64,000 bases of DNA from a virus. The notes beneath the pieces are model-generated. The model was not told the DNA's origin, searched no databases, and saw only the letters and a list, made by a program, of their open reading frames with translations. The position numbers and the translations under genes are program-made. Location: positions 1 to 64,000 of the IMG/VR virus record IMGVR_UViG_3300009085_000003; one strand, written 5' to 3'. Shown here one piece after another: positions 27,556 to 54,041 of this stretch (positions within the stretch are counted from its first letter, which is position 1; each line of letters begins with the position of its first letter).

Positions 27556-28263
27556 CTAGTGATACTTATTATCAATCGACTTGATGAACTCCACTATTGT
27601 GTCTGGTGTGTCATCCCGGTTGAACTCGACTCGCACAAAACGCGGGTCGTCCGGGGTCTCGCGTACCGCTTTCAGCTCCTCCATGCGTATCTCCAAGCTA
27701 TTCGCTAAATCCCAGATTGCCAATTGGTTGTGTTGCTGCGCCAGCTTGATGGCTTTTTCGTAGTTGTGCTCAACCACGGAGACGTCAAGAAAGAACTTGC
27801 GGCTCTCCTTATCGTACCACCCGCCGATATGGGTCTGGTTGTTCTTTTTCAGCAAATCTTGATGCTTGTCGATAAAGTTGGCGACATCGTTCGGATTCGG
27901 ACTCGTGGCATCGATGATAGTTTCGTAGTCTTTAAAGATTGACAGGGCATAGCCATCAGCTGGGCTACTGGCACTGCGTGGCTCAAACGTGAACCCGCCC
28001 TCAGTCAGCATCCGGTCGGTCAGGAACTTACCCATCTCAACTTTTTCCTCTGGAGCAAAATACCGCTCCTCTTGAACCTGTCGAGGCGCATCAGCACCCA
28101 TGGATTCCGACTCGGCTTTACCAGAACCATCACCCTCGCCACTACCACCAATTTTGCCCGGACGCCCAGCGTGCCCAAAATTACCGGAGCCCTTGCCTCC
28201 TTTGGTAGTGACAAAAACAGACAGGATGTTTTCAATCGCAGTGAAATCATTTGGCTCGGTCAT
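27556..28263 (-). CDS. tagged putative virion cargo protein, SAM-lyase-like domain
   Basis: KGG tag at aa 21-41, then GGW...FLDVS...AIKLAQQHNQLAIWD. Confidence 0.6.
   Translation of the reverse strand: MTEPNDFTAIENILSVFVTTKGGKGSGNFGHAGRPGKIGGSGEGDGSGKAESESMGADAPRQVQEERYFAPEEKVEMGKFLTDRMLTEGGFTFEPRSASSPADGYALSIFKDYETIIDATSPNPNDVANFIDKHQDLLKKNNQTHIGGWYDKESRKFFLDVSVVEHNYEKAIKLAQQHNQLAIWDLANSLEIRMEELKAVRETPDDPRFVRVEFNRDDTPDTIVEFIKSIDNKYH
28141..28203 (-). repeat. KGG-GH tag copy 1
   Basis: KGGKGSGNFGHAGRPGKIGGS. Confidence 0.95.
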
Positions 28264-29525: not shown

Positions 29526-29529
29526 ATTA

Positions 29530-29853: not shown

Positions 29854-32730
29854 CTAGCCCCTTTTCTTGCTGCCAAGGAAACCATCCAAGAACGGTTTAT
29901 CCGCCACTGGCGTCTCATTCACGGTGGAGACGCGGGGCTTCACAGACTCCGAACGCGCTTGCGCCTCGGCATGTAGCTCATCCTGCGACGCGGCTTTTTC
30001 GGGGTTGCGGGTCTTGGTTGCCTGAGTATTCACTGGCGGGTTGGCTCGCGCACCAATCACACGAAAGACGCGCAACTTCTCCATGTCCGCCACATCGGTG
30101 GCAAGGACGTCGAGATAGCGACCCGACTGACTGGCGCCAGCACGATAAGTGTGCCCATTGACTTTGAACGTCATGTTGCCTTGGGCGCTGCCAATATATT
30201 CCATGCGCACCTTGGCGGGCTCAATATTGACATTTTCAATCCGCTTGACGTTAATAGGCTGACCACCACCACCAACACGTGGTGCTTGCTGAGATGCAAT
30301 CACACGCTTGGCGGCAATAATTTGTTTTCCTGCTTTACTACCACAACCACTACAAGCCATCATCTTGTTTACTCCTTTATAGTAACCAGAATATTGTTTT
30401 GAAAGTCTCCCAAGAATCTCTTTGCCTCGAGTAGAGAGCTCTCCCTGCTTGGTCAGGGTTAACATGCGCCTGTGACCGGTATCAATGCGATAAATCATCA
30501 GGGGTTCTGGAACGTGCTGCCCACAGATACCATTGACCGCGCATCTCACAAAATATTCCCAGTCCTCCCAAGACTCATAGGTCTCGTCAAACTTCATGCG
30601 CTGAGCGCACTCCGTATACATGAGGACTGTGACAGCGTGCTGCAACTTCCAGTCCATTCTATTATAACTCTTTAAGCGTTCGATTGAGTCACCGGACTTT
30701 TGCCGCAGGATATAGTCTGAGTACACATATGAGATTTCATCGTCGCTGCGTGCCAGAGCGCCCAGTAACACATCCAGTGCGTTATTGGTTAGCATATCAT
30801 CACAATCTAAAAACATGAGGGTCGGTGCTATGGCGGCATCGATACCGAGATTCCGTGCAATCCCAGCCCCATGCTTTCCCATGTTCGGCACCACGCGGGC
30901 GAACGGGTACGGAGACATAATGTCGCCGGTGATTTCACTCTTGTCGTCCTCAATCGTATCATCTACGATTATCAATTCCCACTCACGGCACGACTGGGCA
31001 ACGACGCTCTCAATGACCTCTGGCAGATACCGGGCATGTCCCTTGCCTACCGGGACAACGACACTGACCAGCGGAAATAGATATGAGTAGATAGCATCAG
31101 GGCGGCGCAACAGGGGGGCGCCCATAGGGTATACCCTGTCCCTCATCCATGGCAAATCCTCATCGATAGTACGGTAAGGCTTCGTGACGTGGGCACCAGC
31201 ATCATGTAGGCGGTATCGAAACAGCGGGGTTGTCGATACCCGGCGAGCGGTGAAACCAACCGACAGCCCACGTGTCCAGAATTCCGCATCCTCTCCGGGT
31301 GCAAACTTTTGCTTATGCCAACCAGCTCGGCGCCACATCTCCTTGCGGAACATGGCTGCGCTCGGTATGCAGTTGGCGGGCGGGTTGGTGAGGCTGCTCT
31401 GTATATCCCAGCTGAATTCCGGCGGAAACTGGGATGACCCCAAGGTTTTACCCTTGGCGTCTATCAGGGTCAAACCGGCATAGGCGATGCCCAAAGAACG
31501 GTCTTGCTCCATGGCGCCCGACAGCAAGCCCACATATCCGGCTGCCAGTTCATCGTCAGCGTCAAGACATATTATCAATGGGTACCGAGCTGCTTGAATG
31601 CCAGTAGTGCGTGCCGCCGCCACGCCCTGATTCGCCTGTGTGATGATTTTGACCAGCGGGTTTGACCCATAGCGCTCACGAATCAACTGGACACTGTTAT
31701 CTTTTGACCCATCATCCACCACAATTATCTCGTCGGGCTTCTGGGTTTGTTTCAGTGCACTATCGATGGCGCCCATCACCCACTTGCTATAGTTGTAATT
31801 CGTGATAACCACGCTCACGCCATGGGTATCTTTTTCATTCTGGAGCTCATGGGCAATGCCCTCGTACAACTTGGCGTATTGCGCCATGATATTCGACCAG
31901 TCGTACTGGGCTGCTTTTTCGCGTGCCCGGTCAGACATCTCAGCGCGGTGCGCCTGTATGTATTCGTATCCAGCCGCCAGACCCTCGATATCTCCGGGGG
32001 CAACAAGGTAACCATCCACCTTGTGGGTCACGATATCAGCTGTGCCGCCCCAGTTGTACCCGAGAACTGGCACGCCACACATCATTGCCTCCAGTGTACC
32101 AACACCAAAGGTCTCAATGGTTGTTGCCAGATAGATGTTTGCTGAGCCAACCAGTACCATCATGTCAGCATGACTCATGGTGCCCACTACCCGTAACTTG
32201 TCCAGTGCAGGCTTATTCGGTACCGCGAACGTAGATACAATGTCGATACCCTTGGCAGCCAGCTCCCAAGCCGGTGTAGGGTCACATACGTCACCGACCC
32301 GGTTCTTGTTCCAGAGAGCATAGTTCACCGGCTGGTCGTGTCTGGCATCTGTCAAGTCGATACCGTGTCCAATCACTACTGGGCTGATACGCATATCGCG
32401 TTTGAACGGCATCGCTACCCACTGGCTGGGAACGGTTATTTTCAATGCCTTACGGCTGCTGTCTACAATCTCGTGGTTGACAGCACTGTGCCAGCTGACA
32501 TAGGACATATGGGGGAGGTCGGCGAAATAGAGACCATGGCTGTGGAGAACGTCAACACGCTTCTCACCCCCACGCGCGGCAATATGCACAGCCACTACAT
32601 CAGCGTTTTTCCAATCGTTCGTAATCTCTATCCCATATCGGGGCAGGTATTTATGCTGGGCATGAACCACGCGTCCAATGCCATTGTCATCAGATGCATT
32701 ATTAGGATTCAGGTTTAGGAATAGTTTCAC
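29854..32730 (-). CDS. triple glycosyltransferase (GT4 + GT2 + GT2)
   Basis: ETFGVGTLEAM (GT-B); VSVVITNYN...VVDDGS...LDADD; VSVVVP...IVDD...FLDCDD. Confidence 0.9.
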   Translation of the reverse strand: MKLFLNLNPNNASDDNGIGRVVHAQHKYLPRYGIEITNDWKNADVVAVHIAARGGEKRVDVLHSHGLYFADLPHMSYVSWHSAVNHEIVDSSRKALKITVPSQWVAMPFKRDMRISPVVIGHGIDLTDARHDQPVNYALWNKNRVGDVCDPTPAWELAAKGIDIVSTFAVPNKPALDKLRVVGTMSHADMMVLVGSANIYLATTIETFGVGTLEAMMCGVPVLGYNWGGTADIVTHKVDGYLVAPGDIEGLAAGYEYIQAHRAEMSDRAREKAAQYDWSNIMAQYAKLYEGIAHELQNEKDTHGVSVVITNYNYSKWVMGAIDSALKQTQKPDEIIVVDDGSKDNSVQLIRERYGSNPLVKIITQANQGVAAARTTGIQAARYPLIICLDADDELAAGYVGLLSGAMEQDRSLGIAYAGLTLIDAKGKTLGSSQFPPEFSWDIQSSLTNPPANCIPSAAMFRKEMWRRAGWHKQKFAPGEDAEFWTRGLSVGFTARRVSTTPLFRYRLHDAGAHVTKPYRTIDEDLPWMRDRVYPMGAPLLRRPDAIYSYLFPLVSVVVPVGKGHARYLPEVIESVVAQSCREWELIIVDDTIEDDKSEITGDIMSPYPFARVVPNMGKHGAGIARNLGIDAAIAPTLMFLDCDDMLTNNALDVLLGALARSDDEISYVYSDYILRQKSGDSIERLKSYNRMDWKLQHAVTVLMYTECAQRMKFDETYESWEDWEYFVRCAVNGICGQHVPEPLMIYRIDTGHRRMLTLTKQGELSTRGKEILGRLSKQYSGYYKGVNKMMACSGCGSKAGKQIIAAKRVIASQQAPRVGGGGQPINVKRIENVNIEPAKVRMEYIGSAQGNMTFKVNGHTYRAGASQSGRYLDVLATDVADMEKLRVFRVIGARANPPVNTQATKTRNPEKAASQDELHAEAQARSESVKPRVSTVNETPVADKPFLDGFLGSKKRG

Positions 32731-33365
32731 AAAGTCCTCGTTTTGATATAGCCCAGAACTTGGTTGTAGGTTTCAACCAAATCCCAGTCATAGGCATCGT
32801 TGTCGATATCGATAAACACACCGGTCTTATCGTATTGGTGGATATCCAGAGGCATACCGCAAAACGAGCGATACAGTGACCAGAGTCGATACGGAGTTTT
32901 ATGGGCTAGGTGGCTATGGACTGCGAAATCAAGCGCTCCACGAACGTGAATCATATCGTGTATGACCAAGGCATATATTTCGCCCTTGGGCTTAGAGCCA
33001 ATCACAGCGAGACCGTTGGTGTTGTCCTGTGCCCCAGCCGATACTATCACATCCCACGCCTCGCTGGTATAAACACAATCACTTAACAACACCAGCACCG
33101 GGGATGCCGTCACGAGCCTTATGGCATCCTGTAAGCTCTCAATAATGGTGTTACTTGGGCGCAGGACAAACTTTGCCCGAGCAACGTCGATGATATCCTT
33201 TTTGCCGGTCACCAGATACGGCTCCAGAGTCAGCCGCCTGCGGCACTGCCCCATGATGAGGCTGACTGCCGGGGTGCCATTGATGGGAGCGAGCTCTTTG
33301 GGGGACGGAGCCGTCCACCTCTCGCCCTGTCCGCCAGCCATTAGGAAAACAGTCTGTATGCTCAT
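32727..33365 (-). CDS. sugar nucleotidyltransferase-like protein
   Basis: FLMAGGQGERW...PKELAPING signature. Confidence 0.8.
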   Translation of the reverse strand: MSIQTVFLMAGGQGERWTAPSPKELAPINGTPAVSLIMGQCRRRLTLEPYLVTGKKDIIDVARAKFVLRPSNTIIESLQDAIRLVTASPVLVLLSDCVYTSEAWDVIVSAGAQDNTNGLAVIGSKPKGEIYALVIHDMIHVRGALDFAVHSHLAHKTPYRLWSLYRSFCGMPLDIHQYDKTGVFIDIDNDAYDWDLVETYNQVLGYIKTRTL

Positions 33366-33389
33366 TGTGTGCTCCTTAATTATTATCAA

Positions 33390-34255: not shown

Positions 34256-34516
34256 ATGAACCAATCAGAGATTATCCAGATGAATCGCACGGCAGCCGAA
34301 ATCTACGTCGCCAGTGGTCTCAACCCAGAGGTCAAAAAGGCTGTCCGCCAGATGGTCGCCAATCAGGTCGACATTCATAACATGAATTGCAGTATCCGCT
34401 GTGGCGACAAGGAAATTCCGCACGCCAGTGTCGACAAACACTTTCGCATCGTGGTCGCTGAAATCATGACACGCAATTACGAGGCTGCAAAGTGCAAGGT
34501 TCGGGAGCAATCATAA
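34256..34516 (+). CDS. hypothetical protein
   Basis: AAGGAG RBS; first of four coupled ORFs. Confidence 0.7.
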   Translation: MNQSEIIQMNRTAAEIYVASGLNPEVKKAVRQMVANQVDIHNMNCSIRCGDKEIPHASVDKHFRIVVAEIMTRNYEAAKCKVREQS

Positions 34517-34716
34517 TGATGAAGATAACCGAGGCTCGTGCGCTGGCAAAGAAAAAGTGGGGCTCCCTTGGCTTCGCCGCCAAGACCCGATATGGTGGCG
34601 CCTGCTACACCGTTGGCAAGTGGGTCGTGATTGGCAAACAGCTTCACAAGGAATACTATGGGCAGGGAACCTCTTGGGAACACGCCTTTGAGCGAGCCGC
34701 CCAAAAGGGATACTAG
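34516..34716 (+). CDS. small basic hypothetical protein
   Basis: TAATG coupling. Confidence 0.65.
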   Translation: MMKITEARALAKKKWGSLGFAAKTRYGGACYTVGKWVVIGKQLHKEYYGQGTSWEHAFERAAQKGY

Positions 34717-34733
34717 AGAGAGGATGGTAGACA

Positions 34734-35069
34734 ATGAATGAGCAGCGTTTTTGGATAACTCAAGGTAAGGGCTTTCAGATGAAGTTTGACAACGGCTATA
34801 TGGTGTCGGTACAGTGGGGCAGCATGAATTACTGCGATAACCGTACCTTTGGCACTGACATTGTTCCGCCAGATGGCGAGGCTGCCAGAGGCGCCATGGG
34901 TTCCAACACTGCTGAGGTCGCTATCATCAACCCCAGCAAGCAGTACGTTGGATTCAAGGTGACCGCACGTGGCATCCGGCGCAGTAACAACCCGTCGTAC
35001 CGTGTCGGCAGCTACATGGATGCCAACGAGGTCGCCCGAGTCATCGCTTGGGTGGCTCGCATCAAGTAA
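34734..35069 (+). CDS. phage hypothetical protein
   Basis: FDNGYMVSVQWG...AEVAII pattern. Confidence 0.7.
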   Translation: MNEQRFWITQGKGFQMKFDNGYMVSVQWGSMNYCDNRTFGTDIVPPDGEAARGAMGSNTAEVAIINPSKQYVGFKVTARGIRRSNNPSYRVGSYMDANEVARVIAWVARIK

Positions 35070-35083
35070 TCTAGGAGGAACGT

Positions 35084-35281
35084 ATGTTCTATAAAATCAC
35101 TTGGCAAGATAATAGTGGAACATTCCACACCGACTATTTTGTGAGCCCACACACAGTCTGGGCTCACGATGGCGGGTACCGGGAATGCAGCTTTGTGCAT
35201 GTTTCCAACGACCCAGAGACAGCCCTGCGCAAGTTTCTCAAGGCGCTGCCTCTGAGAAACGTGAACATCGTCTGCCGGTAG
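35084..35281 (+). CDS. hypothetical protein
   Basis: AGGAGG RBS. Confidence 0.65.
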   Translation: MFYKITWQDNSGTFHTDYFVSPHTVWAHDGGYRECSFVHVSNDPETALRKFLKALPLRNVNIVCR

Positions 35282-35370: not shown

Positions 35371-36828
35371 CTAGTTATTCTCTGGGACAGGCGAATAGTA
35401 GCTCGGGATAGTGGTATCGCCTGCGGTCTTACCGCCATTGACGAAGTAGCCACTATCGGTGAACGGTGAACGTTCGTGTGCCAGAGGTGCGTATCCGACA
35501 TTATCAATCCGTGCCGCCAGATACGGGGTGAGCAGCATGAGCCGGGGCTCGGTCTTGGCAAGCACCTGAACACAGAAATTGTTCGGTGGCTTCTTGTGCC
35601 ACATAAAGCGACCGCTATCTGTGGTGTAGAAGCTGCCATCCGGGGCGAACAGGTTCGCCATTGCCATGGCACCGTTCGGTGAGTCGTAGCTAAAGTATTC
35701 CATGTAGGTCACTGGCATACGACCGAGAACGGTCATGGGCAGGATAAAGACCCCAGCCGAGAACACGCCCGGAGCCACTTCGGTTTCGGGGATTGCATCG
35801 TCCAAAACCACCGGGACTTTCTGACCGTCGATGAGCAGGTACTGACCTGTATATTCATACAGGTTGCCACGCATTTCATCGCGCATCCGTTCCACGTCAG
35901 CTGAGTTAAGTGACAGTTCCGCTGAATTCAGGGTCTGGCAGCGATAGCTCAGGTAAGTGCACGGGTAGCTCTCTGTGATTGCATAGAACAGAGAGAACGG
36001 CATGACGATTTTCCATGACACCGGGTCAAGCCCAGCGCGGGAGGCAAGCCATTTCAGGTTGCGCATGGTGCTGGTAATCAGGCGGATAAAGCCCTCAGCA
36101 TCGTCCTCGATTTGAACGTCGTTATAGTCGTAGACAATGGAGTCAGCTGCCGGGCAAGCGACGCCAGTTTCAGCATCCTGATACCCAGTATTGACCAGAG
36201 TCTCCAGACCCCAGAATTCACGATACCCGCCGCCCGCCGTGTTATTGGTGGGTGTACCGGTGTAGAGAATCCGGGCGAAGTCACGCGACCACGTGACACC
36301 GAGCTCAAACAGAGCCTTGGCAATTTCATTCTGAGCAGCTTTCGCAGCGTCAAAACCGATGATGCCGGGGGTCTGGGGATTATCGCCAGCGCCAGCAAAC
36401 GGATTGCCGTAGATGTCAAAATCGGTGAATTCTCCCCGATTAGTGACACGTCCCGCGCGGTCTACGTCGTAGACCTTGGTCATGCGGGAGAACCGACCAA
36501 ACACAAAGCTGTGGGTGCACAGCTTCATGACACCAGTCACGGGCGGGTCATCACAGACACCGGTCGGCTCATCGCCTGACGATGCGGTGACACCAGTGAT
36601 GATGCCATACAACGGGTTGGTCTCATTCGCTGCTTTGACCGGAAGCTGAGCTTGCAGACCCAGCTTGGGCAGAACCATTGCTGAGAACAACGGCTTTGAT
36701 AATCCGGGGCTTGAGAACAAGCCACCCATACCGTGTCCCATCGTTGCAGACGGGGTACTGGATGGAACGTCTTTCAGGCTCACGGTGGAGAGCAGCGATT
36801 TCGCTAGTTTTTCGTAATCAATGTCCAT
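35371..36828 (-). CDS. major capsid protein
   Basis: Directly after protease/scaffold; strong RBS; size; followed by terminator. Confidence 0.8.
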   Translation of the reverse strand: MDIDYEKLAKSLLSTVSLKDVPSSTPSATMGHGMGGLFSSPGLSKPLFSAMVLPKLGLQAQLPVKAANETNPLYGIITGVTASSGDEPTGVCDDPPVTGVMKLCTHSFVFGRFSRMTKVYDVDRAGRVTNRGEFTDFDIYGNPFAGAGDNPQTPGIIGFDAAKAAQNEIAKALFELGVTWSRDFARILYTGTPTNNTAGGGYREFWGLETLVNTGYQDAETGVACPAADSIVYDYNDVQIEDDAEGFIRLITSTMRNLKWLASRAGLDPVSWKIVMPFSLFYAITESYPCTYLSYRCQTLNSAELSLNSADVERMRDEMRGNLYEYTGQYLLIDGQKVPVVLDDAIPETEVAPGVFSAGVFILPMTVLGRMPVTYMEYFSYDSPNGAMAMANLFAPDGSFYTTDSGRFMWHKKPPNNFCVQVLAKTEPRLMLLTPYLAARIDNVGYAPLAHERSPFTDSGYFVNGGKTAGDTTIPSYYSPVPENN

Positions 36829-38917: not shown

Positions 38918-38936
38918 CTGTCTTTGACTCCACAAT

Positions 38937-39067: not shown

Positions 39068-39292
39068 TTACGACATTGTTACCACAGGTCTCCACTGACC
39101 TGTCTCACCGCAGTGTCTGCATATGAACGTTACCCGCAATGGGAACGCGGCATTATCAATATACAACCGAAAGCCATCGGTTTCACCGATGACCGAATCG
39201 CAATGGCGGCAGTGGAAGTCTTTTAACGGGACTCCTGCTTTGCTACAGTCGCCATGGATTTTTGAATCATTTTTGGGAGTCTCTTTGTCCAT
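39068..39292 (-). CDS. Com-like zinc-ribbon protein
   Basis: DFHCRHC...FICRHCG. Confidence 0.6.
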   Translation of the reverse strand: MDKETPKNDSKIHGDCSKAGVPLKDFHCRHCDSVIGETDGFRLYIDNAAFPLRVTFICRHCGETGQWRPVVTMS

Positions 39293-41333: not shown

Positions 41334-41343
41334 GTGTCCACCT

Positions 41344-42525
41344 CTATGTCTCAGAACCTAATACATAATTATCAAACATCAAATCATCCAGACTTATACC
41401 ACAGTAGTTGTTCAGCAAATGATTGATTTTGTTGGTTTCAACGGGCGAGAACTGCCGGAGCAGATTTGTCCACCCGTTGGAGCCACTTTGCCACTTCAGT
41501 TTTTGGTCTGTGATATTACATGCCACCAGATGTATCAAGCCACGCACCTCGACAATAATTTCAGCGATTTTGTCAGGCGAATATCCCTTAGCTTGGAGCA
41601 TGGTGCGAAACAAAGCCACTGTATCGTCGAGTACCACGCGGTAGGTACTATCCGCTCCGCTGCCTATCCGCCCCGCTATCTTTCCAAAAATTTTGGCTAT
41701 CTCGCTGTACACCTCGCCGCCAGCGTCGTTACCGCTCTCGTTTGACACGTTCTTGGCTGCCTCGGGCAACGTCAGTATCTGGACGGCATACGCAACTTCG
41801 TCATTAATACCGGATATCGTTGAGATGCACTGGATAGACCGGGCACCGCTAACCACCGCCATGGCAATATCAGCAGATGACAAGGTGGACGCAGTTCCCA
41901 GCAGCTGGCGCTCCGCAAGCGCAGCGACGTGCGTGTATATTTGTTCGCCCTCCTCTTGACCATATTTGCGAATCAGGGTCTCTCGCGCTATATCAAAGTC
42001 GTACTCGTTATTCTTGGGATGACAGTGGAGTAGGGTCATGTCATCAAAACGCGCGATATCGTCGTCGGCGAACGCTATAGAGTGAGCACCGCCTCGCGCC
42101 TCGTGTATGATTTCCCCTTTCGGGTTCAGGACAAACGCATACTCCCTACCACCAGATATCTCACCCTGACGCATCGCCTCCTTAAGGAGCTCGTTGGTGA
42201 GCGCCCGGAACTCCAATGAATTCGTTGGCAGCTTCTCCGATTTTAGTGGGTCGGGAGCCCCGCCTGTCTCTGGTTTAGGATTATCAATCGGAGCTGCGTG
42301 CTCGCCTTTGGGGAGAGACCCACCTCGCTTACCGGGTCTACCGGCGTGACCACGGTTACCAGAACTGGCGCTGCCTTTTTCGGAAATCGGGGAAAGTTCC
42401 CGCTCTGACGCGAGTAAATCATCTAACGCCTGCTGGGTAATATCGGCGTCGTCATAACCGGCTTCTAGATATTTCAGCCAGTCGTCATTAAGCTCAGAGT
42501 TGTTAACAAAGTTCCTTGGTGTCAT
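41344..42525 (-). CDS. tagged putative virion cargo protein, JAB/MPN domain
   Basis: Tag; REYAFVL...LLHCHP...LSSADI. Confidence 0.7.
   Translation of the reverse strand: MTPRNFVNNSELNDDWLKYLEAGYDDADITQQALDDLLASERELSPISEKGSASSGNRGHAGRPGKRGGSLPKGEHAAPIDNPKPETGGAPDPLKSEKLPTNSLEFRALTNELLKEAMRQGEISGGREYAFVLNPKGEIIHEARGGAHSIAFADDDIARFDDMTLLHCHPKNNEYDFDIARETLIRKYGQEEGEQIYTHVAALAERQLLGTASTLSSADIAMAVVSGARSIQCISTISGINDEVAYAVQILTLPEAAKNVSNESGNDAGGEVYSEIAKIFGKIAGRIGSGADSTYRVVLDDTVALFRTMLQAKGYSPDKIAEIIVEVRGLIHLVACNITDQKLKWQSGSNGWTNLLRQFSPVETNKINHLLNNYCGISLDDLMFDNYVLGSET
42316..42378 (-). repeat. KGG-GH tag copy 3
   Basis: KGSASSGNRGHAGRPGKRGGS. Confidence 0.95.
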
Positions 42526-45371: not shown

Positions 45372-45921
45372 ATGCAGCCAGATAATCTACAACCTCAAGT
45401 TGTTTGTGGGCAGTCATCATTTTGTCCACTACCAGTTTAACATCTTTCCAGACATCTTTACCGTAATCATGGAACAGAATAATTCCACCCTTTTTGACCA
45501 GTGGAACCCAGTCTGTGATATCGCGGGTGATTTCGTGCTCCAGATGACCATCGTCAACCAGCAGCAGGTCGATGGGTTTATTATCCGCCCAGTGCTTGAC
45601 CCGTGCCTCGTGCGCGTCCGCAAGAATCTGGACGGGATACGCCGGGAACCCATGCTCCAAAAATGCGTTCTGTTCATTCACCAAGCCGTGCCCTGTAGCC
45701 ATTAAGGTATTATCAATCGTGTACAGGGTCGGCAGCAGGTCTGGGCGTACATCAGCCACCGCCATGGCAGTGGTTCCCACGCCCGCGCCAATATTGACCA
45801 CCGTGGCATTCTCCGGGGCAAGCTGGGCATACTTCGCCAGTAGACCCACCTCGTTAACCGTCAGGTAGCCGAACGACCGAGCCAGATGCTCCGCACGTGT
45901 TGCTTTCAGTAACTCGCTCAT
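45358..45921 (-). CDS. class I SAM-dependent methyltransferase (Methyltransf_24-like)
   Basis: VVNIGAGVGTT, LLVDDGH, VKKGGIILFHDY. Confidence 0.85.
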   Translation of the reverse strand: MSELLKATRAEHLARSFGYLTVNEVGLLAKYAQLAPENATVVNIGAGVGTTAMAVADVRPDLLPTLYTIDNTLMATGHGLVNEQNAFLEHGFPAYPVQILADAHEARVKHWADNKPIDLLLVDDGHLEHEITRDITDWVPLVKKGGIILFHDYGKDVWKDVKLVVDKMMTAHKQLEVVDYLAAYEKQ

Positions 45922-48900
45922 AATCCTAGTAACCTCCTAATAGCAACCTCTAGGTCGCTACTGTTTAAATTATAGTCGAAATCAAATATATCGTTAGCAG
46001 CAATGATTTCGACATTCTCACCACCAAAGATACGGAACTCACCCATGGAGCTCATCTGGTAACCCTTGGCTTTGCCCAGCTTCCCCATTTTTGGTTTCAG
46101 AACAAGTGTCTTAAACTGTTTCGGGTCAAGTTTGGCGAGCGCTTTCCAGTTGGTGCCAAAGAATACCGGGTTGCTCATGCCGCCCGCACCTTCACGCGCA
46201 TATAGGTAGGCGTGTGACCACAGATACCACAGAGCCTCGCGGTACGCCTCCTCGGTCATCAGGGTTCCATCCCACTTTTTGACCTCCTCGCCACGTTCAT
46301 AAGCCATAAGTCTGTCCAGACTCTTTTCGCTATCGAACTCCCGGAATCGGTCGCTCCAATCTTCCCGGATACCCTCACTGCCGTTCTGGGCACCCTCAAA
46401 CATCTGGGTAGCAGTCAACATACCATTTGCGACTAACCACGCCTCCTGTAGAGACTGCTCGACTTCTTTGGCAGTCTTAAGGTCATTGGTCAGGGAGATG
46501 GTCTTATCATCACCGCCCGCAAGACCGACTTCGCTATCGTGCCCATGCATCTCGTAGCGGGAGCGGAGCTGGTCACCGATGACAGCTGCGGCATCGGTCG
46601 TGACGTGATATAGCTCATCCGGCAATTCCATCCATTTGCCTTGGTTACTGACATAAAACGCTGTCAGCGCCTCAACATCGGACGGGGTCAAGCGAGCAGC
46701 GGTGACCGCATGATTGACATCGAACTCGAACTTTTCACGCAGCTCCCCAGCCACTCCGCCATATTCTATGATATCGTAGTACCCTTTGTATTCTTTGCTA
46801 TCCTCGCCATACTTGGCTTTAAGTTGCTCCTCGTACCCCTGCAAAATATAGTCTGTCTCCGAGCGACTAAACTCGGTCATGTCAGGAGCGCCTGCCAGTA
46901 ACTCTCGGGCTAATTTTCTACCGTAACGACCACGCTCCGCACTGGCATCGCTTCCATCTTGTATCAAGAGCGACTTGTCAGTCATCCGTGTAGATAAATC
47001 CTCTGCGTTTTCAGGCAGCCCAAGCTGTTCGCGCACGCGACGTATGCGATTATCAAACTCGGCTTGATGGTGCTCCAATACTTTGGTTACCTGAGCTGTA
47101 GTAACATAATTGCAGTTCGTAAACACTTCCATCCCGAGGTCTACAGTTGCTGGGTCATCACTGTCCCGCAAAGCACGCCAGTGGTCATATGTCAGACCAA
47201 GCGTGCTAAGCGCAATATCAAAATCGTCAGCACCCAGTCCAACAGTGCCATTATTATCCGTGGCTTCCAGTTTGTTTTTGAGGAGCAGGTATGGTCTGGA
47301 TATTGTCATCTGCGGAGTCTCCAGTATCTCCGCACTCACATCCGGGTCTCCATACCCACGCCTGACGCTACGAGAACTGAAATAGAATTTGTCGGCTAGG
47401 TCAATCATGACATCTGGGTTAGGAATGATGCCATTGTTAGCGATGATGGCTTTCGCCTCTTGCACCAGAGCTTGCCGCTGGGCACGAGCTTGTTCGACCT
47501 CAGCATCCTCGATACCGTATGACACCACCGGTCGCGCGGCTCCCTTGGGCGCTGAACCGCCCCGGCGTCCCAAGACGCCCACGTGTCCACGGTGACCAGA
47601 ACCAGCCCCGCCTTTCAGCTTCGCCTCTTTGTTCACGCCAACGTAGTCCCACTCTTGGAGCGGGTGGGTACGCCAGCCACCATCGTCGCTGATGTATATA
47701 GCAATGTCCGACGGATTCAACTGTCGTTCAAATAAGGCGCTTAGAATGTCAGGAAAGTGTTTATCCAGCTTTTTCAATAACCGGTCGATATCATCATCAC
47801 CGTATCGATGCAGAGATACAATTGGCTTCCCTTTCACATACCCAAACAGCCCACGGAAACTTATGTTATCCTGATTTAATTTGTCATTACCACCATAACG
47901 ACCTGTCTCTCGCATGAGGATATCGTCATGTATCTCGTCTTTTTTCCCGGCGAACGCAAGCCCATCCTCGGTAACCAAGAATGGTCGAACGTCAGCCATG
48001 CCCTCTGTTTTATTGGTTCGTATCATGGCGTAGCCGGGTATCTCGTCCTCAGCCCGGAGTCGAGAGGCAACATCGATATCAGTAATGCCCATCGTCACGA
48101 GCCCACCGCGTCCTGAGCCACCCACCTTACCGGGACGTCCACGATGACCAAAATTACCAGAGCCCTCTCCGCCCTTGAGTACCACATTTCCGTGAATAAT
48201 CCCCAAAATGAATGAGAACAGGTACGGGTCTTGCCGCGCCAGTTTCCATGGGGCGGTAGCGAAAATCTCAAAAGCACAGGACAGGATTTCGGTCTCCCCG
48301 CTCGAGTATTCCCTGTTCATGTAGTCAAAGAACATATGAGACGTGTTCTTGTTCGTTCGGTAGTCCCTCAGGGCTTGGCGGGTCTTGGCTGGCAACCGTG
48401 CCTCTACGTGATGACCCAACTCATGCCACAACTCCGCTCGGGCAGCCTCTTGCATGGCGTCCACATCCAGTTCGGTATGGCGCTGTACATACGGATAATT
48501 GTTCGGGTCGTTAGCAAGGAACTCCCCGCTATCCCATGTGTACAAAGTCGCCTCGCCGCTTATCTGCTGTAAATCCGCAGTGTACGCGCCCCGATTCGGG
48601 TAGGTAACAAAGAGCACTTCGTTATCGACAGCTTTCGGGTCGTAGACACTTTTATCAATCATCTGGTTGGCACGCCACAGCTCCTGCCGGATAAACTCCT
48701 CGGCATCAGGGGCGTACCGTATATCGCCAATATTCCAACCGATAGGACGCGGCGCCAAAGCGATAGACGTCCTGAATTTCTCCGCCTTGTCTCCGGCACT
48801 CAGCACACTGGTATAACAGTCCATGACCATCTGGCGCTGCATGTCGTTGACCTCACCCTTGCGCTTGATAACCTCTTGAACAAATTCATTGTGTCGATTT

Positions 48901-51900
48901 AGATACGTCTCAAAGTGCTCCGCCGCCTGCGGATACTCTTTCTGAATGTCGCGCAAGCTCATCTCTCGCTCGAGCGTATTGTTGAACGGGGACGGCGAGA
49001 TTCGTCGCTCAGTAATTGTAAAAACTCTATCATCGATGCCTATCGGTCGAATGCGACTTGTCCCATAAAGATGGGACTCGATTCCAGCAACCGCGGTACT
49101 GGTCTGTTCGTTGAACATCGCCTCGCGCGTATCCGGGGATGACAGGGTAGACCTATCGTTTTCCATCCACACCATCTGGTTACGAACCCAGACGAGATAG
49201 TCATCGCGCAACTTCTCATACTGTTCTACCTGCGGTTTGACCCGGTTCATGTACTCGAGCACGGCAGAGGCGCCCGCCCGCATCAACGACTTAACGTCAT
49301 GTTCGTATACAACTGGATGACCGCTCACATCTTTTTCCGGTGGGAATTTCAGGAACGGATTATCAAGATTAATAGCGGGGGTGGAACGCTCACCTTTAGG
49401 TAACGAACCTCCACGCTTGCCCGGTCTGCCAGCGTGACCGATATTGCCGGAGCCCGTACCACCCTTAGTAGTAACATTCGGGTCATAGCCAAATGTAAAC
49501 GAGTCAAGCTCCGTGAGCCAATCAAAGTGCCGAAAGTATGGCTTGTTGGCAACGATGACCACGCGCAATGGCTTGCCCGTTAAATCACAATACTTTTTCA
49601 GGGCGCCCATGAATCGAGACCCTAGGTTGTTAAGGTTGTCTGGTTTTTTAAAGATGGTTCCCAAATATAGGTATGAGCCATCGTCCTGTATTCCAACCGA
49701 CAACTGGGTATTATCATTATCGGTGAAGTACAGCGACTCGACCGGATTGCCGTAGATGTCGTTCCACCGCTCGTCACCATTACCATAGCGCATCGTAACA
49801 TCCCCGCCCATTTCGCGCTCAAAGAATATCTTCACCGGGTTGTCTGGCGTGTTTAATAGTTGCCGACCAGTGATACTGCGACTCCACAGCTCGCGCCGGG
49901 GCATATCTGTGCCGTCAGCAACTTCACGTAGCTTATTAACAGCATCGTTATAACCCGCTTCGGAGCCGCCCTCCCCAGACCCACCCACCTGTCCGGGGCG
50001 TCCCCGGTGACCAAAGTTACCAGAACCCTGTCCGCCTTTCAGCACCGTAGTTCCCTGAATGATGCTGAGGATAAAGCCGAACATCTCTGGGTCTTGTTGG
50101 GCAAGACGCCATGGGGCAGTAGAGAATATCTCGAACGCGCAGGACAGGAGCTCGGTGGCACCAGTGCGGTACCGTGTTTGCATGTAGTCGAACATGAAAG
50201 GATTCTTACCATCGGCTACATCCACGCGAAAGAGATAGAAATTATCAATAGCATGACGGTATGGTACGGTTAGAGTGTGTTCCACATGATGACCAAACTC
50301 GTGCCAGATTTCCAGCCGCAGGTATTCTTGCAGTGTGTCGACATCCACATCGTAGTCTCGCGGTATGAATGGATAAATGCCACCTATGCCAGCACCGGGG
50401 AATTCTGGGGGTTCAGCCGCATAGGCGCTCTCGCGCTGGTCGTATGTCACCAGCTTGCGGTCTAAGGTGATGGTCGGTATATCCAACTCCCGGTTGTCCG
50501 CAGGGTTGGCATACGAACCGGTCATAAGGGAGGTGTCAATATAGAGCTTGTCACCATACAAGCTGCGGTTGCCCTCATGCAGAATGTTGACATTCACTAC
50601 GCCTGCCGCATCGTCTACGACGCTACGAATATAATCAATGGCGTCCGGTGAAATAGATAGGGGCTTACCGGTGATGTCTACTCCTCCCGTATTCATGTCC
50701 AGCGCGACCTCCCATGGTCTTGGGTTGGACGCCTTAAGAGATTTAATGAACTGGTTCGCTAACTCGGTCTGGACTTTGTTGGCTGCCTCGCGCTTTTCAA
50801 TATAGCCGTTCGCAAAGGCATTGTAATCGTTGAACCACTTATCCAGTCCGCCAGCAGTGAGGGCTTCTGGATATTTTTCCTTGAGGTCGTTGTAGCTGAA
50901 AACCTGCTGGTATTTGTGACCGGATTCGTGGGTATTTGGGTCATCAGCCGACGGTACCCATGGCTGGATAAGCAGGAACGGCTCATCCGGGCTCAGGGGA
51001 CGCACCTCCATGCGCGAGTCGTAGGTATTATCAAAGCGCTGCTGCCCGATACGAATCGACGGGTTCCGCACATCGACATGGGCAAGACCGTAATCATCAG
51101 GGGATAGGTGCCGAAACGTGTCATGGAGCACATTGCTAGAATCGGCTGACGGCAGACTTTGCAGGAACTCATGTGTTATCGCCTTAAAGTCAGCCTGTGC
51201 CTCAGTGACGAACGTCTCCCGCAGCTTTTTGTACTCATCCAGCTGGGGCTCGATGGATTTCAGGTATACAGCTGCCGCATCCTTGTTCGCGTCGATGAGT
51301 GCCTGAACATGGCTTGGGTATTGCGGTGCCGGGAATGTTTTGTCGCCCACGCGCAGGACACCACGCGGCTGCTTCTTGGGCTTGTCTACTGGAACCCCAC
51401 GAACGCCCTTGGGCAAGCTGCCACCGCGTTTTCCGGGTCGTCCTGCATGACCAACGTTCCCAGAGCCTGTGCCGCCCTTGGTGGTAGTCTCTTTCAGGGA
51501 GATGTTCCCATCGGAATCGATAAACACGTGCTTGGCAGACAAAAACTCGCTCAGGTCATATTCGAGCGATACACTGGAGTACCCATGACCGAGATGCTCA
51601 GAGTACGTCTGCCAGCGCACAGTGTCGTTGTCCGCCAGCTCCATATCCCAGACGCCAGCATCGTACATGCGTTGCAGCTGGCGGAGGATTTTGGAGTTGA
51701 CGTTCTGGGTGGTGATATATAAAGACTTGCCACGGAAATTACCAACCAACAGGCGGAAGTTCACGAACGGTATCGCGCTGTTCTCGTCCATGACCAACAT
51801 GCCATACGTCTCCTGCATGGCGTGGCGGAACATGCCCACGGTCTCAGAGAGCTTCACCGGCATCGTTGTCATGGGCTGATTCTCGAGCTGGTGTTTCAGG

Positions 51901-54041
51901 TAGATAGCGTTGTACTTATTAACTATCCGTTCGAGTTCTTTTTCAATCTCGTGGTCATCATCAAACACACCCTCATCGACCTCGCGGGTCAGCTTGTGCA
52001 TCTCTTTGTCCAAGTCGACATATTCCTGTAGCCACGCAATCGCTGGGTCATCGTTAGACTCCAGTATTTTCTTGGCGCTCCTAGCAACACCGATGATGGG
52101 GCGCAACGCATCGAACACAAAGACGGCTTTTTCACCAACCCGTCCGGGGTCAGCTTCCATCTCCTTGACGATATCGGGGAATAATCCCGGATTTTCGTAC
52201 ACAATTCCACCCACCAGCTGCTCGTGACTAAAATGCCCTTCGCCACGAACGCCAATCACGCCAATCCCCTCGATATAGGTGGCGGCTGCCGTGGTGAAGT
52301 CATCAACATCGTCTCCCTCGAGCTCAGCCTTAATCGCTTCGTTCACGCTGTCGAATGGACGGTAGCCACTCGGGAGCTTGACAGTGTTCCAGTCTATTGT
52401 CGGGGGACTATCGATGCCGTAGGTAATTGACTCGCCCGCAGGGGCACGGGGGACAGGAGCAGCGCCTTTCGGGGCAGAACCACCGCGCTTTCCCGGCACA
52501 CCTACGTGACCATGGTGCCCACTGCCAGCACCGCCCTTGGTGGTTACCTCGGGCATCAGATAATACAGCTTGTAAAAATACTTATAGCCATCCGGTGATG
52601 GGGATTCCTTAAATTCATCGAGAACCCACTGAGCGTCATGATTGAGACGCAACGTAAACATGCCATCTATCCACGAAGGCGGGATAGCCTGCTCCATGCG
52701 ATAGCACCCTTGAGTCTCAAAGTCAACGTCAGCTTGCGCGTCTGTAAAGATGTCAGATAATTTTTCAATCGGAACCCGGATACGCACCCACACAGGCTGG
52801 GTTTTCGCAGCAAACTCCTCCGGTGGAAACAAGTCAGTTGGTACGTTGTGTTGTACATAGCTGGCTAGGTCGGTCATCGTTTCTATGTCATCGACAAAAT
52901 AGGTCGATGGCGGTCTGCCATAATGGACACGACCGGGCAGAATGCCGTACTGCTTGAGACTGTCCGCCAAACCAGCTGGAGTCCCATGGTAGAGGTCAAC
53001 GTATCCGATACCCTTTGCGATAAGCTCCTGCTCCAGAGCGTCCAGTTTCGCAGCGATATCTGGGTCGTAGTTCGTAAAGTCTCCCTGCGCATGATACGGT
53101 GTCGCATACGGGTCTTTACTCGGGTCTGTTTTCATCGGTTCTAGGTCACGCTCCCAGCCATGGAGACCGGTGTAAGCCGGGTCTGTGCGACGCGGGTTGT
53201 GCATGTCAATGACTTCCGACGCCGGAGCGACCCTGCCACCGAACCGACTCCCGCCACGCTTTCCGGGAATACCAGCATGACCCGCCTCGCGCGTGAATCC
53301 ACTGCCCTTCCCGCCTTTGAGTGAAATCGGGGAAACTTCCCTCCCCGCTATGCGATGCAACGGCAGGTGAACTTGCTTCGTCCGGTACGGTAAGATGAGT
53401 TCCCAGTTCCGTATCTGGAGCGGGTTCCATGCACGATGACGCTCGACGCAGGTCTGGCAGTGCTCAGCGACCCCGAGCTCCCAGTATGCATCAGCGTTAC
53501 CGTCCTCGATATCACCGATGACCTCGATACGCCACCGGCATTTGCAGTTTTTCAAACATTGGCTGGTACCATCCCCCGGATAGGCTGGCAGGGGCATGTC
53601 ATCCACGCCCAGCTTGGCAGAGGTGTTGGCACGCCAGTATTGCTCTACCGCAGTGCGGTTGTACTGACGAGCACGCCCGAACCAGCGGCTGTCGAAATTG
53701 GTATCATCGAATTTGTTCCCGAGTTGGTTGGCTGCGATTACCAATGCAAAGCCAGACAAGAACGCCAGCTGCTGGGCAATCGCTTGTGTCAGGTAGTCGC
53801 TTGCTTTTGGGGGAATGACCTCAGAGCCAGCGCCGACCATGTAGCCGGTGGTGGCTCCCAAACCGATGAGCTCACCCATCAGCTGCTCCCAAGCCTCGAC
53901 GGTTATCTCACCGTTAAATAGCTCGTAGAGCAGGGCGTCGGTCTGTTCATCCATGCCCATAATAACGGGAATCAGCTCGGGGGGCAGACCGTCGTAGCGT
54001 TCCCACAGCTCGGGCTCACCAAGCGGGGTGTAGTCTGGCAT
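45918..54041 (-). CDS. MuF-like minor head protein fused to seven tag-delimited effector modules (polyvalent protein)
   Basis: Directly after portal; PGDG..QCLKNCKC...HCQTC; 7 tags; two HExGH, two LYH(G/V)T, one GNAT-like module. Confidence 0.85.
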   Translation of the reverse strand: MPDYTPLGEPELWERYDGLPPELIPVIMGMDEQTDALLYELFNGEITVEAWEQLMGELIGLGATTGYMVGAGSEVIPPKASDYLTQAIAQQLAFLSGFALVIAANQLGNKFDDTNFDSRWFGRARQYNRTAVEQYWRANTSAKLGVDDMPLPAYPGDGTSQCLKNCKCRWRIEVIGDIEDGNADAYWELGVAEHCQTCVERHRAWNPLQIRNWELILPYRTKQVHLPLHRIAGREVSPISLKGGKGSGFTREAGHAGIPGKRGGSRFGGRVAPASEVIDMHNPRRTDPAYTGLHGWERDLEPMKTDPSKDPYATPYHAQGDFTNYDPDIAAKLDALEQELIAKGIGYVDLYHGTPAGLADSLKQYGILPGRVHYGRPPSTYFVDDIETMTDLASYVQHNVPTDLFPPEEFAAKTQPVWVRIRVPIEKLSDIFTDAQADVDFETQGCYRMEQAIPPSWIDGMFTLRLNHDAQWVLDEFKESPSPDGYKYFYKLYYLMPEVTTKGGAGSGHHGHVGVPGKRGGSAPKGAAPVPRAPAGESITYGIDSPPTIDWNTVKLPSGYRPFDSVNEAIKAELEGDDVDDFTTAAATYIEGIGVIGVRGEGHFSHEQLVGGIVYENPGLFPDIVKEMEADPGRVGEKAVFVFDALRPIIGVARSAKKILESNDDPAIAWLQEYVDLDKEMHKLTREVDEGVFDDDHEIEKELERIVNKYNAIYLKHQLENQPMTTMPVKLSETVGMFRHAMQETYGMLVMDENSAIPFVNFRLLVGNFRGKSLYITTQNVNSKILRQLQRMYDAGVWDMELADNDTVRWQTYSEHLGHGYSSVSLEYDLSEFLSAKHVFIDSDGNISLKETTTKGGTGSGNVGHAGRPGKRGGSLPKGVRGVPVDKPKKQPRGVLRVGDKTFPAPQYPSHVQALIDANKDAAAVYLKSIEPQLDEYKKLRETFVTEAQADFKAITHEFLQSLPSADSSNVLHDTFRHLSPDDYGLAHVDVRNPSIRIGQQRFDNTYDSRMEVRPLSPDEPFLLIQPWVPSADDPNTHESGHKYQQVFSYNDLKEKYPEALTAGGLDKWFNDYNAFANGYIEKREAANKVQTELANQFIKSLKASNPRPWEVALDMNTGGVDITGKPLSISPDAIDYIRSVVDDAAGVVNVNILHEGNRSLYGDKLYIDTSLMTGSYANPADNRELDIPTITLDRKLVTYDQRESAYAAEPPEFPGAGIGGIYPFIPRDYDVDVDTLQEYLRLEIWHEFGHHVEHTLTVPYRHAIDNFYLFRVDVADGKNPFMFDYMQTRYRTGATELLSCAFEIFSTAPWRLAQQDPEMFGFILSIIQGTTVLKGGQGSGNFGHRGRPGQVGGSGEGGSEAGYNDAVNKLREVADGTDMPRRELWSRSITGRQLLNTPDNPVKIFFEREMGGDVTMRYGNGDERWNDIYGNPVESLYFTDNDNTQLSVGIQDDGSYLYLGTIFKKPDNLNNLGSRFMGALKKYCDLTGKPLRVVIVANKPYFRHFDWLTELDSFTFGYDPNVTTKGGTGSGNIGHAGRPGKRGGSLPKGERSTPAINLDNPFLKFPPEKDVSGHPVVYEHDVKSLMRAGASAVLEYMNRVKPQVEQYEKLRDDYLVWVRNQMVWMENDRSTLSSPDTREAMFNEQTSTAVAGIESHLYGTSRIRPIGIDDRVFTITERRISPSPFNNTLEREMSLRDIQKEYPQAAEHFETYLNRHNEFVQEVIKRKGEVNDMQRQMVMDCYTSVLSAGDKAEKFRTSIALAPRPIGWNIGDIRYAPDAEEFIRQELWRANQMIDKSVYDPKAVDNEVLFVTYPNRGAYTADLQQISGEATLYTWDSGEFLANDPNNYPYVQRHTELDVDAMQEAARAELWHELGHHVEARLPAKTRQALRDYRTNKNTSHMFFDYMNREYSSGETEILSCAFEIFATAPWKLARQDPYLFSFILGIIHGNVVLKGGEGSGNFGHRGRPGKVGGSGRGGLVTMGITDIDVASRLRAEDEIPGYAMIRTNKTEGMADVRPFLVTEDGLAFAGKKDEIHDDILMRETGRYGGNDKLNQDNISFRGLFGYVKGKPIVSLHRYGDDDIDRLLKKLDKHFPDILSALFERQLNPSDIAIYISDDGGWRTHPLQEWDYVGVNKEAKLKGGAGSGHRGHVGVLGRRGGSAPKGAARPVVSYGIEDAEVEQARAQRQALVQEAKAIIANNGIIPNPDVMIDLADKFYFSSRSVRRGYGDPDVSAEILETPQMTISRPYLLLKNKLEATDNNGTVGLGADDFDIALSTLGLTYDHWRALRDSDDPATVDLGMEVFTNCNYVTTAQVTKVLEHHQAEFDNRIRRVREQLGLPENAEDLSTRMTDKSLLIQDGSDASAERGRYGRKLARELLAGAPDMTEFSRSETDYILQGYEEQLKAKYGEDSKEYKGYYDIIEYGGVAGELREKFEFDVNHAVTAARLTPSDVEALTAFYVSNQGKWMELPDELYHVTTDAAAVIGDQLRSRYEMHGHDSEVGLAGGDDKTISLTNDLKTAKEVEQSLQEAWLVANGMLTATQMFEGAQNGSEGIREDWSDRFREFDSEKSLDRLMAYERGEEVKKWDGTLMTEEAYREALWYLWSHAYLYAREGAGGMSNPVFFGTNWKALAKLDPKQFKTLVLKPKMGKLGKAKGYQMSSMGEFRIFGGENVEIIAANDIFDFDYNLNSSDLEVAIRRLLGL
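47553..47615 (-). repeat. KGG-GH tag copy 6
   Basis: KGGAGSGHRGHVGVLGRRGGS. Confidence 0.95.
48114..48176 (-). repeat. KGG-GH tag copy 7
   Basis: KGGEGSGNFGHRGRPGKVGGS. Confidence 0.95.
49404..49466 (-). repeat. KGG-GH tag copy 8
   Basis: KGGTGSGNIGHAGRPGKRGGS. Confidence 0.95.
49977..50039 (-). repeat. KGG-GH tag copy 9
   Basis: KGGQGSGNFGHRGRPGQVGGS. Confidence 0.95.
51417..51479 (-). repeat. KGG-GH tag copy 10
   Basis: KGGTGSGNVGHAGRPGKRGGS. Confidence 0.95.
52476..52538 (-). repeat. KGG-GH tag copy 11
   Basis: KGGAGSGHHGHVGVPGKRGGS. Confidence 0.95.
53247..53318 (-). repeat. KGG-GH tag copy 12 (3-aa insertion)
   Basis: KGGKGSGFTREAGHAGIPGKRGGS. Confidence 0.9.

Follow-up and report, generated by a model that had tools for sequence, protein, structure and literature searches.

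A Gly/His/Arg-rich peptide heads twelve modules of late phage proteins and is a candidate prohead-protease cleavage header

Introduction

Proteins injected by phages are a main route of counter-defence, and we know of no means of recognizing capsid-borne proteins from sequence outside T4 and phiKZ-like phages. Here, we describe a recurrent peptide in a 64,000-nucleotide stretch of phage DNA (the window), which comprises bases 1–64,000 of the complete 79,569-bp IMG/VR virus genome IMGVR_UViG_3300009085_000003, a genome with 120-bp direct terminal repeats. The peptide, which we call the tag, is ~21 residues long, rich in Gly, His, and Arg, and present in 12 copies in five late genes. Comparative evidence leads us to favor a reading in which the phage's prohead protease would cut between Lys and Gly-Gly (K/GG, the slash marking the predicted cut) at all 12 sites, leaving the tag at the N-terminus of each released module as a disordered header; we regard this reading as probable.

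Among described systems, the capsid targeting sequence (CTS) of T4 internal proteins and Alt is similar in that diverse anti-host proteins carry one short N-terminal signal, are incorporated into the prohead core, and are cut back by the prohead protease at a fixed P1 residue (PMC3012670, PMC5694885). Short hydrophobic leaders of tagged proteins, such as MKIVLK/ and MSTIRLVE/, are CTS-like in size. In T4, however, gp21 removes the conserved element, which precedes the cut, whereas the tag follows the predicted cut and would be kept. The part before the predicted cut is variable and can be as short as 3 residues, and the leaders show no conserved peptide of the T4 type that would be removed. 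Unlike the CTS, the tag also joins modules within polyproteins and spans phages with different protease families. Ejection proteins of phiKZ-like phages, such as SPN3US gp245 (motif A-X-E), are likewise head-internal proteins cut at a P-side motif, with multiple cuts per protein, but their propeptides are long (20–254 residues) and are removed, and no conserved primed-side peptide has been reported for them (PMC10052503). The T4, phiKZ, and SPN3US proteases cut after Glu (PMC5694885). The HK97 protease, gp4 (MEROPS S78), cuts at K103/S104 and thus has Lys at P1; it belongs to the same family as the protease of our phage, but its known substrate is the scaffolding domain of the capsid protein rather than cargo, and no Gly/His/Arg header follows the HK97 site (PMC10275583). 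As expected for S78 substrates, the genome studied here has an assemblin-fold Ser/His protease in its head module and Lys at P1 in 12 of 12 tags.

Phage polyvalent proteins, which are predicted to be packaged and injected, form the other close comparison (Iyer, Burroughs, Anand, de Souza, and Aravind, 2017; PMC5512222). Their domains include ART-PolyVal (ART, ADP-ribosyltransferase), zeta toxin, ParB, Fic, HD, and 2'-5' ligase (PMC5512222). Like them, tagged proteins include giant late-gene products that adjoin or are fused to portal or MuF proteins, and those of other phages carry many swappable enzyme domains. Polyvalent proteins combine two to fifteen independent domains; the largest tagged protein, of 2707 amino acids (aa), consists of eight segments that recur elsewhere. 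They are encoded beside portal and packaging genes; the 2707-aa gene starts on the stop codon of a probable portal gene, with protease and capsid genes downstream. With regard to conflict domains, tagged relatives in other phages carry exactly polyvalent-protein domains (ART-PolyVal, zeta toxin, Fic, HD, ParB_N), whereas the five tagged proteins of this phage match none in Pfam and have one transitive link to a DRAT-like ART. The polyvalent-protein paper contains neither the word "glycine" nor the word "linker" and describes no recurrent header peptide (PMC5512222). It proposes processing by zincin-like MPTase domains (PMC5512222), in contrast to the prohead protease proposed here, and cleavage at K/GG would explain how polyvalent proteins could come apart after assembly, a point left open in that founding paper.

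The system is of a known kind, namely head-internal cargo trimmed by a prohead protease, as with the T4 CTS and the ejection proteins of phiKZ-like phages, combined with polyvalent proteins. Three features seem not to have been described before: a conserved, retained primed-side header common to protease families, its use as a joint in polyproteins, and a genome-wide P1 code.

Results

Twelve tags in five genes

Six-frame regular-expression scans of the window and of the whole genome with the pattern K-G-[GS]-x-[GS]-S-G-...-G-H-x-G-x-x-G-x-x-G-G-S returned exactly 12 copies of the tag, all on the minus strand and distributed over open reading frames (ORFs) of 2707 aa (seven copies), 949 aa (two), and 393, 550, and 235 aa (one each). 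All other frames and genes of the 79,569-bp genome lack it. An earlier note made from the letters of the window alone had given the same copy numbers and had stated that every copy follows a Lys, as is the case for 12 of 12 copies in our alignment. Eleven residues are invariant (K-G-.-.-.-S-G-.-.-G-H-.-G-.-.-G-.-.-G-G-S), and the consensus in this genome is GGxGSGNxGHxGRPGxxGGS. The form of the motif given in the earlier note holds for the core; the first tag of the 2707-aa ORF departs from it, having a 3-residue insertion (GSGFTREAGH) and lacking the N/H position.

Conservation of the tag is at the protein level, as had also been claimed. Mean pairwise identity was 64% for nucleotides versus 76% for amino acids, 66% of same-residue (synonymous) codon pairs differed, and the last invariant Ser was encoded by both AGY and TCN codons. 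This divergence of codons between copies points to selection on the protein. The tag profile matched the 2707-aa protein with an E-value of 2.2e-86 in a search against 1.84 billion proteins, and the repetition is therefore far beyond chance. The G-R-P core is present in 7 of the 12 tags here and in 173 of 200 tags elsewhere; in the other five tags of this genome Ile or Val replaces the Arg, and the Pfam AT_hook model did not match the tagged proteins. Three subtypes can be told apart among the 12 tags, namely GN.GHAGRPG.RGGSLPKG, GHHGHVG..GKRGGSAPKG, and GNFGHRGRPG.VGGSG.GG; tags of the first subtype head three paralogous modules described below.

The tag in other phages

An exhaustive search of 1.84 billion cluster representatives with a 31-column profile built from the 12 tags matched 4,125 proteins at E ≤ 1e-3, of which 681 passed E ≤ 1e-10, with up to 10 tag copies per protein. 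The tag is near-invariant across the 4,125 clusters, and its wider consensus is KGGxGSGNFGHAGRPGxVGGS. The domains that accompany it include enzymes (ART-PolyVal, exotoxin-type ART, DRAT, zeta toxin, Fic, HD, ParB_N, RadC, Tpt1, 2'-5' RNA ligase, NUDIX, and topoisomerase IB), head-assembly proteins (portal, PF04860 and PF06381; MuF, PF04233; XkdF-type prohead protease, PF14550), and, in some proteins, metallopeptidase-like domains. In a 1905-aa protein of locus L054, for example, a portal domain is followed by NUDIX, four successive tags, and a zeta toxin. Such tagged proteins belong to the phage-type polyvalent proteins (PMC5512222). The fusions lend comparative support to the head-module context for which the earlier note had proposed a profile search. 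Genomic context agrees. The tagged ORFs of 72 viral loci fetched via the tag are grouped on one strand; 48 of the 72 have a typed prohead protease or MuF gene less than 10 kb from a tag, and all 74 protease or MuF genes within 10 kb are on the same strand as the tag.

Pfam has no model for the tag and we found no published description of it, in keeping with the earlier statement that it is not a named family. The tag is nearly absent from bacterial genomes: a pattern scan of 185,579 species genomes for the exact 12-residue core GSGNFGHAGRPG found only three contigs, all in metagenome-assembled genomes. A tblastn search of 50,697 phage records with the polyprotein and a 45-aa tag query gave no match, a result in which the low-complexity filter may hide the tag, and gp030 of cyanophage PSS2, a zeta-toxin-bearing head protein of a cultured phage, has no tag. 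In locus L033 (positions 7548–8285), the module of the 235-aa protein has a homologue with a degenerate Gly/Ser-rich stretch at its head that lacks the GH..GRPG core, which indicates that the tag can decay.

The residue before the tag is phage-specific

Tags of one phage nearly always have the same residue at position –1, but phages differ in which residue this is: K, R, E, D, L/A, N, H, or Q/Y. Over 200 tags in 39 loci, the entropy at this position was 2.48 bits overall and 0.21 bits on average within a locus (ratio 0.08), compared with ratios of 0.42–0.52 for positions –2 to –8 and 0.21–0.47 for variable positions within the tag. In an independent sample of 177 proteins, each bearing at least three tags, the –1 ratio was 0.09 versus 0.35–0.40 at positions –2 to –4; the –1 residue was fully uniform in 140 of these proteins, and none of 2000 permutations was as extreme. 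In the module family of the 235-aa protein, the –1 residue is K, L, or N depending on the phage, and it therefore follows the phage and not the module. One locus, L077 (IMGVR_UViG_3300027902_000329), departs from this uniformity with mixed –1 residues (Q, Q, Y, M, Y, H, Y), and its protease may be broad in the S1 pocket.

Upstream of position –1, each class has its own pattern: (L/I/M/V)-x-E in the E class, L-(R/K)-(A/T)-(L/A) in the L/A class, L-(V/I)-(E/Q)-R in the R class, L-E-K-x-L-N in the N class, and hydrophobic residues at P4–P2 in the K class, to which our phage belongs. These class-specific P4–P1 patterns look like a protease site; the E-class pattern matches T4-type sites, and the Lys of the K class is the P1 residue of HK97.

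The tag would stay with the downstream module

Of 223 proteins, 108 have their first tag no more than 40 residues from the N-terminus, whereas only four have their last tag that near to the C-terminus, and never closer than 22 residues to it; the median module length is 230 residues. Leaders before the first tag are non-conserved and vary in length between 3 and more than 90 residues. The shortest (MRIK, MTSLK, MKIVLK) are the size of a mere P4–P1 site, and the leader is thus not a long targeting peptide. The tag is followed by a generic A-P-G-G-G/S stretch in which no residue is class-specific, and hence we see no second cut there. In our phage, xPKG follows 8 of 12 copies, as the earlier note had remarked in calling it frequent, but PKG is a peculiarity of this lineage and a Lys downstream of the tag shows no tie to the K class; no second class-specific cut was seen after the tag, at PKG included. 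Both the polarity and the lack of anything class-specific after the tag lend comparative support to the earlier proposal that the tag would be retained on the downstream module.

An S78-clade protease in the late operon

A 687-aa protein encoded at 36,872–38,935 (minus strand) has features of a prohead protease fused to a scaffold. An iterative profile seeded with residues 296–460 (nt 37,556–38,050) converged on 17 ORFs in other tag-bearing phages, four of which pass the Pfam Peptidase_S78 model at the same position; Pfam S78 gave no direct match to the 687-aa protein itself. Asp326, His357, and Ser401 are invariant in the alignment. The AlphaFold (AF2) model (pLDDT 81) found almost exclusively capsid-maturation proteases as top fold matches, with T4 gp21 (5jbl) best and herpesvirus assemblins next, at a Foldseek E-value of only ~4e-3 and a TM-score of ~0.5. 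A search of Protein Data Bank (PDB) sequences with the 687-aa protein returned nothing, and the protease profile gave only noise against them. From the profile, alignment, and fold, the 687-aa protein carries a maturation protease of the HK97-type S78 clade with an assemblin-like fold. Its C-terminal third is acidic, helical/coiled-coil, and scaffold-like. In a related phage (L010), the corresponding protease-scaffold is the C-terminal end of a 1578-aa five-tag polyprotein encoded directly upstream of the capsid gene.

Two further observations concern the N-terminal half of the 687-aa protein. Its first 55 residues match phrog_3684 and the start of the tagged polyprotein of L010. Within residues 188–273, the sequence SKTKGAGNMAGLAKHLANKYG resembles a decayed tag (TK/GAGN) and is followed by a conserved ~80-aa domain common to an ORF in L032.

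P1 residue and protease clade

The protease family found in a phage goes together with the residue before its tags. S78-clade proteases (15–16 genes) occurred only in K phages (14 loci and this genome) and in one R phage, whereas DUF2213, detected with Pfam and a local profile derived from it (19 genes), occurred only in D phages, where matches were strong, and in L/A, N, H, and Q/Y phages. The two families split with 99/97 support in a joint tree in which D phages form one subclade. P1 labels required nine changes on this tree versus a mean of 18.5 after shuffling, and none of 200 shuffles was as low. Within the L/A/N/H subclade, close proteases can differ in P1 (L in L037, N in L075), and all tags of a genome thus seem to switch together. 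The association of P1 with clade is consistent with recognition of this residue by the protease. Together with the encoded S78 protease and the HK97 cut at K103/S104, it gives comparative support to cleavage at K/GG by an HK97-type protease, as had been inferred in the earlier note.

DUF2213 genes occupy the place expected for the protease-scaffold (MuF, DUF2213, small ORF, capsid gene) at L054:15701–17260, L036:12471–14201, and 17 other loci, and DUF2213 cross-matches the S78-clade profile weakly (L012). DUF2213 is probably a prohead protease family whose subclades are paired with Asp, Leu/Ala, Asn, or His before the tag. In four loci (L037:11118–13661, L075:9953–11590, L076:13965–15302, and L079:432–2561), the DUF2213 protein itself bears one or two tags, which suggests self-processing at the same code.

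A model for loading and release, and its alternatives

In the mechanism that we propose, modules would be built into the procapsid either as parts of a polyprotein or as small proteins of the same late operon. By comparison with related systems, the phage's own S78 serine protease, in the middle domain of the 687-aa protein, would then cut the Lys-Gly bond of every tag, so that five gene products would yield 12 individual modules along with four short leader peptides and the polyprotein's N-terminal domain. The ~21-residue tag and the Gly/Ser/Pro linker after it would be kept at each new N-terminus as a disordered header. We speculate that the header forms the primed side of the substrate, which different assemblin-fold prohead proteases would all recognize, and that it might dock cargo to the protease-scaffold core and present the bond for cutting; after the cut, it might give the module a flexible N-terminal end with which to leave alongside the DNA. 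Each phage's protease would determine the residue before the tag, with the tag itself universal. Primed-side docking would explain how one peptide could serve both S78 and DUF2213 phages and why the proteases of L037 and L075 themselves carry tags. We offer only tentatively, as a possibility short of an even chance, the broader idea that the tag is a universal and portable "load-and-release" code ([phage-specific P4–P1]-GGxGSGNFGHxGRPGxVGGS) that would recruit a protein to the protease/scaffold core, where it would be cut free for delivery with DNA, and that would be common to at least two protease families and thousands of uncultured phages and re-targetable through the residue before it. The header may also bind DNA through the GRP core or have a role in exit through the tail.

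Several points weigh against cleavage at K/GG with a retained header. The reading does not account for the strong conservation of the His, Asn/Phe, and Arg-Pro positions, which a mere cleavage spacer would not need. Common ancestry confounds the pairing of P1 with protease clade, as all genes of a lineage co-vary. The E-class protease is untyped: Pfam S77 had no match in 50 tag-bearing records, in a search that also missed control genomes, and PHROGs gave no type for it; ClpP was likewise not found in the 50 records. The N-terminus of the major capsid protein has no conserved Lys site with a tag-like primed side, and the protease's classical substrate thus lends no support to a primed-side recognition role. 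Finally, the tag was found in no cultured phage, a negative weakened by the BLAST low-complexity filter.

Some of the same observations could be read without any cut at the tag. A docking or address peptide for the scaffold, capsid interior, portal, or packaged DNA, with the –1 residue forming an interface to a phage-specific partner, would fit a tag that is universal despite differing head proteins, the phage-specific residue before it, its fusion to portal, MuF, and protease domains, and a GRP core with basic residues that recall AT-hooks. We consider this unlikely because the (L/I)-x-E pattern of the E class and the pairing of the K class with an S78 protease fit known cleavage specificities, leaders of 3–10 residues look like minimal P4–P1 sites, and uncut cargo of 1100–1500 aa on all 12 portal subunits would be hard to reconcile with passage of DNA; in five of 12 tags here, moreover, Ile or Val stands in place of the core Arg. 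An inert flexible hinge, kept as a convenient recombination joint for shuffling modules of polyvalent proteins, seems less probable still. The predicted disorder of the tag, the generic Gly/Ser-rich stretch after it, and the occurrence of modules in differing orders and with differing partners would all suit a hinge. Yet a hinge would not account for 11 invariant residues here and near-invariance across 4,125 clusters, for tags at the N-termini of single-module proteins, where no joint is needed, or for the phage-specific –1 position, and the scrambled codons, including AGY/TCN switches of Ser, indicate that DNA identity is not what is kept.

Cleavage at the tag might instead take another form, either after Gly-Gly (double-glycine or LxGG type), by a host protease or another phage protease, or by self-cleavage. 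The Gly-Gly after P1 is invariant, some tagged proteins have metallopeptidase-like domains, and the L-R-A-L-G-G sequence of the L/A class resembles LRLRGG-type sites. Against these possibilities, which we judge about as improbable as the hinge, the variable –1 residue tracks the prohead protease clade, assemblin-type enzymes select mainly on P1, the tag is predicted to be disordered with no folded self-cleaving domain, and the tagged proteins of this phage have no peptidase match. Cleavage at K/GG by the prohead protease remains the reading that we favor; within it, the distribution of the tag, the protease gene, the phage-specific –1 residue with its association with protease clade, and the N-terminal polarity are direct observations, and cutting, packaging, and delivery are inferred.

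If that reading is correct, then capsid cargo could be listed from sequence alone for thousands of uncultured phages, including many modules without a known fold, and the P1 specificity of a maturation protease could be read from its genome. It would also suggest that DUF2213 proteins are a family of prohead proteases specific for Asp, Leu/Ala, or Asn and would provide a compact handle for loading chosen proteins into capsids.

The tagged proteins and their modules

The 2707-aa polyprotein (45,918–54,041, minus strand, as are all tagged genes) has a 242-aa N-terminal domain and seven tag-headed modules, with borders at residues 243–502, 503–855, 856–1335, 1336–1526, 1527–1956, 1957–2143, and 2144–2707. 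Its tags extend from K242 to S265 (53,247–53,318; the variant with the insertion), K502 to S522 (52,476–52,538), K855 to S875 (51,417–51,479), K1335 to S1355 (49,977–50,039), K1526 to S1546 (49,404–49,466), K1956 to S1976 (48,114–48,176), and K2143 to S2163 (47,553–47,615). The 949-aa protein (42,522–45,371) consists of a 32-aa leader and two tag-headed modules, with tags at K32 to S52 (45,216–45,278) and K472 to S492 (43,896–43,958). Each of the remaining proteins has a leader, a tag, and one module: the 393-aa protein (41,344–42,525) has a 50-aa leader and a tag at 42,316–42,378, the 550-aa protein (39,681–41,333) a 41-aa leader and a tag at 41,151–41,213, and the 235-aa protein (27,556–28,263) a 21-aa leader, a tag at 28,141–28,203, and a linker before a module at residues ~70–200.

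Modules of the 2707-aa protein have homologues in other orders and with other partners in other tagged polyproteins, and homologues of the module of the 550-aa protein lie inside the P0050, P0215, and L053 polyproteins. Modules 3 and 5 of the 2707-aa protein and module 1 of the 949-aa protein are paralogous; modules 3–4 and 5–6 of the former resemble a tandem duplication of a two-module unit. The earlier note had called the modules catalytic-looking effectors. None of the five tagged proteins or their 12 modules matched Pfam, and PHROGs gave nothing useful, but one module can be tied indirectly to an enzyme: the C-terminal part of module 2 of the 949-aa protein is related, by transitive sequence similarity, to the DRAT-like ADP-ribosyltransferase regions of P0037 and P0014. 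The label "effector" therefore comes mainly from the domains of tagged relatives and not from the modules of this phage.

In the AF2 model of the 235-aa protein, residues 1–65 (leader, tag, and linker) had pLDDT values below 50 and the module at residues 70–200 had values of 80–90, so that tag and linker are predicted to be disordered. The fold of this module had no convincing structural match (best VIA Z-score 4.8), and the idea that it is a SAM lyase was unsupported, as the phage SAM lyase 6zm9 matched only with E = 0.23. The N-terminal 242 residues of the 2707-aa protein were compared with MuF (PF04233): there was no Pfam match, a local profile from Pfam-verified seeds gave an E-value of 0.11, and hhalign gave a probability of 8% over 10 columns that covered only an N-C-K/R-C motif.

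The late operon

The minus strand forms one long late operon that holds all five tagged genes. In order of transcription, it encodes the probable portal, the 2707-aa polyprotein, a methyltransferase-like protein, the 949-, 393-, and 550-aa tagged proteins, a 153-aa protein, the 687-aa protein, the probable major capsid protein, nucleotidyl- and glycosyl-transferases, the 235-aa tagged protein, the tape measure protein, minor tail proteins, and endolysin. The earlier placement of the tagged genes in the head region fits the four that lie between the portal and protease/capsid genes but not the 235-aa gene, which lies ~7 kb further on among connector and tail genes.

The probable portal protein (561 aa; 54,041–55,726, minus strand) was assigned from its nearest ESM Atlas clusters (Phage_portal PF04860, score 0.96; structure TM 0.5–0.65), with no Pfam, PHROG, or PDB sequence match. 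Its stop codon overlaps the ATG of the 2707-aa gene by 1 nt, and homologues lie upstream of tagged genes in L010, L030, and L031. The probable major capsid protein (485 aa; 35,371–36,828, minus strand) was assigned in the same way (SU10_MCP, score 0.97), with no PDB sequence match, and its homologues directly follow the protease gene in L010, L031, and L009. An untagged methyltransferase-like gene (187 aa; 45,358–45,921, minus strand; Pfam Methyltransf_24, E = 1.3e-13) overlaps both of its neighbors.

Within the cargo block at 39,223–45,921 (minus strand), genes overlap by 4 nt of the ATGA type at 45,918–45,921, 42,522–42,525, and 39,681–39,684 and by 14 nt at 45,358–45,371, and this tight coupling fits one translational unit. 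Between the capsid and connector/tail genes, inside the structural operon, the segment at 29,854–33,389 (minus strand) encodes a MobA-like nucleotidyltransferase and a 958-aa protein with three glycosyltransferase domains (one GT1 and two GT2); these may glycosylate the virion. Just downstream of the capsid gene, plus-strand ORFs of 86, 111, and 65 aa at 34,256–35,281 break the minus-strand late operon, and by its placement this island looks moron-like.

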